Part shown: positions 35,301 to 38,300 of the stretch, in pieces
Position numbering within the stretch: position 1 is the stretch's first letter
Layout: every line of letters starts with the position of its first letter
NCBI RefSeq assembly: GCF_001447785.1
Contig: NW_015164664.1
Span: forward strand, 712,274-776,273
DNA length: 64,000 nt
Direction: 5' to 3'
DNA from: Gekko japonicus
Taxonomy: Eukaryota
Position numbers and translations under genes: made by a program
The notes under the pieces: generated by a model
The model's input: the letters and a program-made list of their open reading frames with translations, nothing else
Databases searched by the model: none
Told to the model about the DNA's origin: nothing

Positions 35301-38300
35301 NNNNNNNNNNNNNNNNNNNNNNNNNCATGAGAAATATGGTAACGGGTTTGTAACTGCCACAGCAAAACCATTTGCCTCCATGCCTGAATCTTCTGTCTTG
35401 TGGCTTCAGAAACAGCTTTAAGTATTTTATGTACAAGCAAGTAATGTTAGAGAATATTTTATAGTCCTAGCCACAATTCTTTCAAAGAAATAAAGTTAAA
35501 GTAAATTAAGATGTAAAAAAAAAATAATTGGAGATACTTTATAGTTAAAGCTTCTAACTCTTCCTGGTTGTTCATTTTTTTCCTTTTTCTTCTTTGTTTG
35601 GATTGCAGCGTTCTGCTCTTCTGATGATGCGCTGTGATCCTGCAGTAGCGCAAAGGCTGCGCAGCGGAATTGCGCATTGCGTGCGATTGAGCCCTTTGTG
35701 AATGGCTGACTAGATGATTCATCTCTAACTGGAAGGCTCTTGAGCTCCATTCTGTAGGCTTTTGGATTGAATTGGGCTGTAAAGCATTTAGACTTCATAC
35801 TCAAATTTAACACTCAAGTTTCTACATGGGCCTGTGTGGTAGATTAATCAATCTGGTTGGCTGTTCACGGTCTCCAAGGGCATTCAACAAAGCGCAGCAG
35901 TTTGCAGCGAGGGCGCAGCGGCGTGCTGTTAGGGTGCGCAAGCGACTTCTTGCGCTTGCATTACAGGGACCTGAATCTTTGTGCAAACCTGTCATTTGAG
36001 GTTTTAGAGGCTGAAGTTAAGGAGATAGGTCAGGGTTCTGGAAAAGGGTGAGTTCAGGGTAGAAAATTCACAAGAGTTTAAAACACCCAACCACTAGTGT
36101 CTGAGATCATAAATTTTCCTTCTTTATATGTAGTTGATAAAGAATGTCAGCTTTCTGTGGTATTTTGGAAGAGGTTAACTGGGAGTTATGTTAATAGCAG
36201 CTTGCTAGCTAAATTGTTGCTTAAGCATGTGAGATTATAACTTCATTTGTTATTGAAGCAAGTTATGGATTCAGTAGAAAAGCAGTTGTAAGGTACTTCT
36301 TCTGGGAGAAGAAAATAAGGGCATAGAGTGTATTTCTGTGCAATGGACAGCATAACTGATAGTGGTGGATTTGCACTTGGGTTTTGGTTTGCGCTGGCGC
36401 AGGATCAACCAGCTGTTTACAGCGCATTAGTTTTGGCGCATGCTAGCCTATACTGCAGGATCACTTTTGGCTGGTTAGAGAAGGAATATTAACTGCAGTT
36501 TTTCTCTCACTTTTTTTTGTGCAAATATTCCCTTTCCCTGTATCTACCCATCTTTAACCCTTCCAAGGCCTGTTATTTGAAGGCAATTGAGACTCAACCA
36601 AATTTTGCAGTAGCGTGGAGCAATCTTGGCTGTGTGTTCAATGCACAAGGAGAAATCTGGCTTGCCATTCATCATTTTGAAAAGGTAATTGTAGGTTTTT
36701 ATATCCTGTGGCACATCTGCCAAAAATGCTTTACATCTGTGCCCACTTCTTCCTAAGCAATGATGGATGCACGTTGGCATATCTACATGTTGGTCAGATT
36801 GATGAATATGTGAATGCACAAGGGCTTGTGTGCCTAAATCAAGCAGTCTGTAATAAATAAAGTTAATACATGCTTGGAGAATAACAGAAATGGAAATTAT
36901 GGATTGGTTCATATGGAAAATTTCTATGGAGGAAAGGATTTCCACTAGTGGCAATGACTTCCTTGCTGCAGCCTAGAAGGCTACTTCTGGAAACAGGGAC
37001 CCCCCCCCCCCCCCCGGAACAGTGTGAGGAGGGTCTGCCATGAGAGTGAGGAGAGAAATTTGAAGTGTGTTCTCTTTAGGGACAGATCTTTCCTGTCTTC
37101 CTCAACCCTAAACATAAGTTTTCTCTAATCTCTGTTCGGATGAATGTTTTAAATATGTGTCATTTTGCTACTACTGGTGTCTTTTTCTACACAATTAGAC
37201 ACAGGTAATGTTCTTGCATCACAAGCCGGAGACAAAGCATGTTCAAGTTTGCCATATTCAGCTAAACAGTAGGTTCATTATGTACGGTAGTAAAGTGAGT
37301 AAGATGTGTTTTCTTCAATATCCTAAGGCGGTGACTCTTGACCCAAACTTCTTGGATGCTTATATTAATCTGGGGAATGTTTTGAAAGAAGCACGTATAT
37401 TTGACAGGTAAGTGGATAAAATACTTACTTTCTCAGTACAATAATTGGCTCACTGCCTGTGCTGACTAGGACTGTTGACACATGGGTCACCTGGTTGCCT
37501 TATTAGTAAATGTATTAGATGTGATTTTGAACAAACAACTTCTTCTAAAATCTGAAAAACTTTTAAAGTCAGTTTTGTTAAGCATAGTTTTTCTGTATCT
37601 GTGTTTTCTGGCTACATTAAAGTGGAAGCCCTCAACAGTAGTTGCTTTTCAGTGGACTCCATTATCAGCTATGTACCCTCCCTAGCAATAAATATAGTTC
37701 CGTATTTTGTGGGTACATGGTGAACATTAACATCAACAGCTGTCCATCTCTTTGCAGAGCTGTAGCTGCCTATCTACGGGCCCTGAGTCTGAGTCCAAAC
37801 CATGCAGTTGTGCATGGCAACCTGGCCTGCGTCTATTATGAGCAGGGCTTGATTGACTTGGCAATTGATACCTACAAGCGTGCTATTGAACTGCAGCCGC
37901 ACTTCCCTGATGCTTACTGCAACCTGGCCAATGCGCTCAAGGAGAAAGGCAGTGTAAGGATCCACTTCTTGCTTACAGTACTCGTTCAGCTTGGGTGTGA
38001 AGGGTTGTGAGGTGACAGTCACACTGGCAGAAATCAAATCTATTTTCTTGGTAGTTGGGAATGTAGTGGTTTAAAAACACTCACACACCTTGGTGGAGCT
38101 TGCCATCTTAATCAGGGCATTTACCATTGGTGTGGGAGCATTTCTAGAAGGTGGGTTGTTACTTCTGCTTGATCCAATAGCCTGTTTAAAGTAGCTTGTT
38201 ATTCTATATTGTGGGAAAAGATTCCTCCCAATTCTGGTACTGCATGCTCTGCATAGCATCAACAACTTGGAGTTCTACCCCCCTTTCCTTAAACAACTAT

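Follow-up and report, generated by a model that had tools for sequence, protein, structure and literature searches.

Intron 4 of OGT is a detained intron under the control of a 526-nt silencer (the ISS) and a decoy exon of 143-153 nt (PMC5588854, PMC6097662, PMC7373989, PMC7261177, PMC12017769, PMC12864184). The response of this intron to the O-GlcNAc level is reported in the cited papers for human and mouse cells. The isolated ISS represses without responding to O-GlcNAc drugs, and further cis-elements are required; deletion of the ISS gives efficient and correct splicing (PMC5588854). If the decoy is blocked, about 20% intron retention persists (PMC7373989). As far as the accessible text of these silencer and decoy papers goes, they deal with splice-site and protein factors only and do not describe pairing to the 3' end of the intron. 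The word "structure" does not occur in the main texts of PMC5588854 and PMC12017769.

The end of the same intron holds the 50-residue leader of human mOGT, with its LQxHFWLVRE motif and with an ATG 150 nt upstream of the exon (Trapannone et al. 2016, PMC4901358). According to that paper, 9 of the 13 tabulated mammals have a broken frame at a nucleotide identity of 90-99%, the ATG is in frame in human, gorilla, orangutan, goat, and cow, and there is no homology in zebrafish; its abstract states that endogenous mOGT was undetected. Why the nucleotide identity is so high is not explained in the available text of the paper.

Two other systems are similar in form. PCCRs (PMC8052449, PMC10573301), such as those of ATE1 and BRD2/BRD3, have short conserved complementary arms that are hundreds of bases apart, lie in regulated introns, and show compensatory changes. 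Distant branch points are associated with AG exclusion zones (PMC1431707).

We propose that in Gekko japonicus, the segment that resembles the mOGT leader is conserved as RNA: it would provide the 3' strand of a 14-bp helix (P1), a predicted branch point, and a pyrimidine tract, and the helix would tune the detained intron. We give this reading a probability of about 0.6.

The mOGT-like segment at the end of intron 4

We analyzed a 64,000-nt stretch of Gekko japonicus DNA (the window). The gene is OGT, as its exon-5 frame matches proteins that are named OGT. The mOGT-like segment is the 3' end of intron 4 of this gene and it cannot encode the mOGT leader here. We compared the window to L027, a second vertebrate contig and the only locus with a homologous intron among 32 metagenome loci that were fetched by their exon-5 motif (one of these, L008, is too short for comparison); to two X17 contigs (records 2 and 3); to RNA reads labelled as the window's species, which cover the 3' 868 nt of the intron; and to proteins whose frames run through the element. 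For "human" we used PMC4901358 together with a mammal-like protein, P0019, as a proxy for the human protein. The features are:

33543-33611, + strand: OGT exon 4, from the sequence and its donor site
33612-36567, + strand: OGT intron 4, the detained intron, 2956 nt (human 3271 nt, from a supplement row)
35338-35346, + strand: the two donor sites of the known decoy (poison) exon, identified by visual comparison with the antisense oligo of PMC7373989
35554-35608, + strand: conserved cryptic acceptor, with a branch motif at 35554, a pyrimidine tract, and AG at 35607-35608
35634-35647, + strand: 5' arm of P1, from complementarity; 35638 and 35646 appear to covary with the 3' arm
35698-35868, + strand: local stem domain inside the P1 loop, from a two-sequence consensus fold (pair probabilities 0.8-1.0)
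35890-36010, + strand: middle conserved block, possibly the 5' side of an inner helix, P2 (uncertain)
36010-36349, + strand: variable loop, 42-66% identity to L027; an X17 contig has 341 unlike letters instead
36350-36449, + strand: conserved block 5' of the "start codon," 90-92% identity to L027; contains an alternative partner, 36399-36406
36450-36557, + strand: mOGT-like pseudo-leader (ATA, 35 codons, stop), in a different frame from exon 5
36451-36464, + strand: 3' arm of P1, the codons I-L-Q-D-H (M-L-Q-G-H in mOGT)
36487-36493, + strand: predicted distant branch point TATTAAC, with the branch A 76 nt before exon 5
36499-36565, + strand: AG-free polypyrimidine tract of variable length, 67 nt here and 84 nt in L027
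36568-36684, + strand: OGT exon 5, phase 0; 131 reads splice exon 5 to exon 6

Translated directly, the pseudo-leader is ILQDHF...STHL*, which is 35 codons from an ATA to a TAA at 36555-36557, and the ATA is offset from exon 5 by 118 nt, which is out of frame. A previous reading of this DNA without database searches (the sequence-only reading) had given all of these values exactly. It had also claimed that the segment is non-coding here, and indeed, among all ATGs in the 2956 nt of intron 4, none is open and in frame to exon 5. The only near-cognate codons that are open into exon 5 in frame are at 36493, 36517, 36538, 36550, and 36565. We consider it nearly certain that 36450-36557 is non-coding in the window.

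Sequence comparison confirms the homology to the mOGT leader. P0019 (MLQGHFWLVRE..., ...ISFGASEPMLQGHFWLVRE...) has 50 amino acids up to exon 5, which agrees with the published 150 nt. Its alignment to the leader frame of the window scores 117 (the other two frames score 22), a value that none of 200 shuffles reached. So the leader had been recognized correctly, as judged from this proxy rather than the human protein. (Searching 1.84 billion representatives with the 35-amino-acid leader gave no matches at E ≤ 0.001, but the query is too short for this to be informative. A search for full-length proteins with the P0019 leader gave 14 candidates, none of them at E ≤ 0.01 and none of them a named mOGT.) That the leader is recognizable but not coding is already in print for mammals (PMC4901358); what is new here is a proposed reason for its conservation. 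The window shares the location and the motif of the human leader, and it shares the loss of frame with 9 of the 13 mammals, but in the window the ATG itself is absent. Also, in contrast to the report for zebrafish, one arm of P1 is kept in fish-like contigs.

The comparison supports the view that the conserved thing is the nucleotides and not the mOGT reading frame. The ATA is common to the window, the own-species reads, record 3 of X17, and L027. The offset to exon 5 is 119 nt in L027, in X17 record 3, and in the own-species reads (190 of 210 reads have an extra T at 36510). X17 record 2, whose start base is unreadable, has an offset of 117 nt and is in phase. In other sequences, 36510 and 36528 are sites of indels. 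P0019 has an offset of 150 nt and the fish-like proteins range from 114 to 211 nt. The element is in the mOGT frame in three of seven fish-like proteins and in another frame in the other four; if all eight proteins whose frame through the element continues into exon 5 are counted, the split is four and four (114-211 nt). (A shuffle test supports six of these eight; the other two, P0013 and P0048, were included because of their common CCRLTF motif.) P0019, P0003, and P0034 have an in-frame ATG into exon 5, and in P0002 the tail of the leader is in phase. Against this view, of the three differences between the window and L027 in the first 14 codons, two are synonymous in the mOGT frame; one synonymous change converts the branch motif to TACTAAC. 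Together with the conserved blocks in L027, this varying phase bears out the earlier suggestion that the segment is conserved at the RNA level, as a helix arm and a pyrimidine tract.

Three bases differ from the window in close to 100% of the own-species reads, in which there is also a one-base insertion (sites 35801, 36289, 36510, and 36514), so the length of the leader varies between individuals or very close species.

Identity to L027 is 88-100% at 35550-35699, 42-66% at 36000-36349, and 84-92% at 36350-36599. From this profile, the 3' block begins about 100 nt 5' of the "start codon." The sequence-only reading missed this, as well as the branch motif within the codons for GILT and the published loss of frame. 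A published mammalian primer corresponds to 36432-36449 with two mismatches. The distance from the decoy donors to exon 5 is 1229 nt in the window and 1216 nt in L027. As for the cryptic acceptor (35554-35608), it is 96-100% identical in L027, and the residues that cover its AG are invariant in 10 of 10 proteins from the antisense frame. It looks strong, lies 270 nt past the decoy donor, and is possibly a second decoy site (a prediction). The accessible text of the cited OGT intron-4 papers does not mention an acceptor at 35608.

We also note that the ratio of observed to expected CpG is 1.02, 1.17, and 0.52 in the blocks at 35600-35700, 35890-35960, and 36350-36500, and 0-0.23 in their surroundings. 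The conserved blocks are rich in common GCGCA/TGCGC words, which allow alternative pairings.

Complementarity and apparent covariation of helix P1

The arms of P1, 35634-35647 and 36451-36464, are 803 nt apart and pair at 14 of 14 positions, so at the level of sequence the segment does contain the 3' arm of a duplex, as had been claimed. When uninterrupted helices are ranked for the final 200 nt of the intron, P1 comes first in the window as well as in L027, and in each it beats 12 of 12 shuffles; equally strong best helices are found in 2 of 14 other loci (L001 and L021). The duplex has z = -4.7 (0 of 500 shuffles), for segments that were picked after the fact. In L027, the arms are identical to those of the window at 14 of 14 and 13 of 14 positions. 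Each arm falls within a conserved block, with the variable loop between them.

DNA with both arms comes from two sequences, the window and L027. The other arm states are nearest-codon inferences from translations of spurious ORFs on unlinked contigs, and say nothing about synonymous positions. To find the 5' arm elsewhere, we searched with an open frame antisense to it, which gave 10 spurious-ORF homologues; there are eight proxy proteins for the 3' arm. The clade labels are inferred as well: 3' arms are "fish-like" by tails in common with a salmonid protein (P0017, P0005), and P0130, which is the sole fish-like 5' arm (E = 0.012), is so labelled by its divergence and fit alone.

These sequences suggest, provisionally, compensatory substitutions at two pairs of P1. 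Across the 10 antisense-frame proteins, the residue that reports 35638 is Ile in five, Val in three, Ala in one, and Leu in one, which correspond to U, C, C, and G. In three of the 10 (P0124, P0126, and P0127) we read CRVT, or C at 35638, and a published human/mouse primer, which is independent of the proxies, also has C at this position. The opposite base, 36460, is A in the window, G in L027 and P0019, and C in six of seven fish-like proteins. The pair 35638:36460 would then be U-A in the window, U·G in L027 (as DNA, with both arms on one contig), C-G in mammal-like sequences, and G-C in fish-like sequences (P0130 with six of the seven 3' arms). The second pair is 35646:36452, which includes the third base of the ATA or ATG. 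It is U-A in the window and L027, U·G in mammal-like sequences, and C-G if P0130 is paired with five of the seven fish-like 3' arms; P0025 and P0010 mismatch P0130 at 36452. At 36459, P0003 and P0034 have an A whose partner is unreadable. Two changes in the 5' arm without a matching change, at 35647 and 35637, still pair as G·U. The chance of such coincidences is about 0.11-0.17 for the mammal-like states and 0.007-0.017 for the fish-like states, given the positions that are visible in the proxies and assuming that the lineages match. We are fairly confident that P1 is under selection.

The sequence-only reading had asked if substitutions follow base pairing, and at these two pairs they do seem to track each other across the proxies. 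It had also suggested that, provided the human 5' arm is the same, the human Met and Gly codons arise from A-to-G changes that are kept in the helix as G-U pairs. This holds for Met: mammal-like 5' arms keep U at 35646, so the change is tolerated as U·G. It does not hold for Gly, as the mammalian 5' arm is not the same and has C at 35638 (from the CRVT proteins and the primer), so that the Gly codon forms a C-G pair. The G-U state of this pair occurs in L027 and not in mammal-like sequences. The compensation at the Gly codon is stronger support for the helix than had been expected.

Folding programs are ambiguous about P1. Its probability in the window is 0.06, 1.0, 0.26, or 0.44, as set by the boundaries of the fold, and it is 0.86 in the L027 fold. 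The two-sequence consensus fold favors 36399-36406 as the partner of the 5' arm (p = 0.59), along with a hairpin over the acceptor. We rejected 36399-36406 as the selected partner, since the change at 36405 in P0019 breaks this pairing while P1 is compensated (in this one sequence). A predicted extension of P1, 35601-35630 with 36470-36500, is weak and its register is shifted in L027. In the stem at 35698-35868, nine listed pairs differ between the window and L027 and all nine still pair (for instance, U·G becomes G-C at 35798:35836), which suggests that the whole region is structured RNA. For P2, the partner would be the homologue of 36350-36430, with p = 0.85-0.95 in the L027 ensemble and 0 in the window; the changes in X17 at 35956 and 36395 are not compensatory. 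Four local folds had z of -0.9 to +1.6, and one of the four segments folded lacked the 3' side of the stem at 35698-35868. The Rfam covariance models gave no matches at E ≤ 1 in 33000-37500.

A hairpin of 36467-36481 with 36551-36566, which encloses the branch motif and the tract and pairs to the AG of the acceptor, is given p = 0.8-0.99 by the two-sequence fold. This hairpin would compete with the extension of P1 and could be a switch (a prediction); its local z-score is not significant. In one own-species run, we saw no A-to-G editing at 3% or above in the 3' arm of P1 at about 200-fold depth. At 35941, inside a predicted local hairpin, 3 of 98 reads had an A-to-G change, with just two read starts, which is possibly low-level editing.

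P1 resembles the PCCRs in its short, conserved, and widely separated arms, its regulated intron, and its apparently compensatory changes, but the segment of intron that P1 loops out has no known exon, and the site where the helix closes is next to the predicted distant branch point of a detained intron. OGT does not occur in the main texts of PMC8052449 and PMC10573301 or in five supplement files of PMC8052449, which are perhaps not the full catalogue. We found no description of an RNA helix in OGT intron 4 in the literature that we searched, although genome-wide catalogues may list the pair without remark.

The proposed helix, the predicted branch point, and the detained intron

We predict that 36487-36493 and the AG-free zone of 67 nt form an acceptor of the distant-branch-point type. 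The branch motif coincides with the GILT codons of the pseudo-leader and it is TACTAAC in L027. At this site, the translations of fish-like sequences have LT, LI, or TN, which would fit CTAAY read in more than one frame. There are other candidate branch points at 36506 and 36554. The Phe/Pro/Ser-rich tail of the pseudo-leader is the translated pyrimidine tract. A branch motif at -76 that is followed by an AG-free tract is as described for the exons of PMC1431707; the difference is that here, the motif is directly 3' of a long-range helix. (We dropped a U12-type reading of TCTTTAAC near the acceptor, because the exon-4 donor is U2-type and the sole match to RTATCC, at 35097, is not at an exon edge. 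TCTTTAAC was judged against the U12 consensus.)

This is the intron of the published silencer and decoy system (PMC5588854, PMC6097662, PMC7373989, PMC7261177, PMC12017769), and the decoy donors are present here. The 5' arm of P1 begins about 296 nt past the decoy donor and 26 nt past the cryptic acceptor, and P1 closes 22 nt before the branch-point motif. (The 5' arm is not part of the decoy exon, as might be supposed: the decoy donors are about 300 nt upstream.) The human silencer reaches 443 nt beyond the decoy donor, if its numbering is intron-based, so if the human spacing is similar then the 5' arm is probably within the ISS.

The 3' end of the intron is retained in RNA here too. In one own-species run, of which about 3% was read, the depth was 205-223 at 36456-36563, 161-210 in exon 5, and 1-2 in intron 5; these figures are for the 3' part of the intron only, and the filter may drop reads. 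Together with the 131 reads across the junction of exons 5 and 6, the depth indicates that the 3' end of intron 4 is retained in processed RNA.

From the position of the helix, we propose that it has a docking role. P1 would hold the silencer and the cryptic acceptor beside the true branch point, which would slow the engagement of U2 until some signal releases the helix. In this way P1 would help to control how ready the detained intron is for splicing, and hence the amount of the OGT enzyme. mOGT would be a by-product: an A-to-G change at 36452 would be free for the helix (as U·G) and would create an ATG, and the length of the tract would put this accidental ATG in frame about a third of the time. 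Given the helix, its position makes a role in detention likely. A bolder version is that P1 is the missing O-GlcNAc-responsive cis-element from fish to mammals, a bridge from silencer to branch point that opens as O-GlcNAc falls, with mOGT as an accident; we hold this only tentatively and think that it is more probably wrong.

P1 might instead be real and selected but do another job, such as hiding the acceptor at 35608 for the sake of accurate splicing or serving as a site for dsRNA binding or nuclear retention. This would explain the same covariation, as well as the location of the 5' arm 26 nt past a conserved acceptor that the extension would cover. Also, deletion of the ISS, which probably removes the 5' arm, leaves correct splicing efficient (PMC5588854), so the helix is dispensable for joining exon 4 to exon 5. 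However, the extension is weak with a shifted register in L027, and a site beside the branch motif of a regulated intron suits regulation at least as well, so we consider another job unlikely. It is somewhat less likely again that both blocks are linear signals, for protein binding and for splicing, and that their complementarity is incidental. Helices of 14 bp with equal scores do occur in 2 of 14 unrelated loci, the folding is ambiguous, no editing was seen, and the branch point and tract suffice to explain 36487-36567. What this does not account for is that the most variable base of each arm pairs with that of the other, with three Watson-Crick states and a wobble intermediate.

We think it very improbable that the segment descends from a coding leader for mitochondrial OGT that was repeatedly lost or is started at a non-AUG codon, and here this is already largely refuted. 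A coding leader would fit the in-frame ATGs of P0019, P0003, P0034, human, gorilla, orangutan, goat, and cow, the phase of X17 record 2 (117 nt) and of the P0002 tail, and the two of three synonymous changes between the window and L027. Yet the window, the own-species reads, X17 record 3, L027, and 9 of 13 mammals all have a broken frame; one of those "synonymous" changes improves the branch motif; fish-like proteins place the element in different frames; in-frame leaders share little beyond the arm; and endogenous mOGT was undetected (PMC4901358). We regard as equally improbable a role for the blocks at the DNA level, for example as an internal promoter that gives rise to short OGT transcripts. 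The CpG ratio (1.0-1.2 for two of the blocks, 0.5 for the remaining one, and 0-0.2 in the surroundings) would be consistent with this, and the GCGCA repeats in the conserved blocks resemble an NRF1 site. But covariation over 800 nt and tolerance of G·U are properties of RNA, the blocks are short, and there is no marked site of read starts near the leader (in one run that looks unstranded, so this is a weak point).

If P1 tunes the detained intron, as we propose, then the much-cited mitochondrial OGT would be an accidental frame, and what serves as its start codon would be a U·G wobble that P1 tolerates. As a conserved long-range intronic helix, P1 could account at once for the conservation of mOGT and for its patchy occurrence, and it bears on the 90-100% identity of the leader region among mammals that are unable to make the protein. 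It also makes it testable what, besides the decoy exon, renders intron 4 responsive to O-GlcNAc (PMC5588854, PMC7373989). P1 is a defined target for splice-switching oligos that would raise OGT, which is a goal in PMC12864184. Editing the start region of mOGT may change the splicing of the main isoform.

In five of the 32 metagenome loci (L007, L015, L018, L020, and L021), exon 5 is joined to the next exon while the upstream sequence is intron-like and ends in AG; L007 reaches the next exon by one residue only. The upstream ends of L015 and L018 are shared with genomic loci that have the downstream intron (compare L004, L011, L016, L017, and L024). These five loci resemble transcripts that retain the equivalent of intron 4, and they have no homology to the intron of the window, which hints that retention predates the vertebrates.
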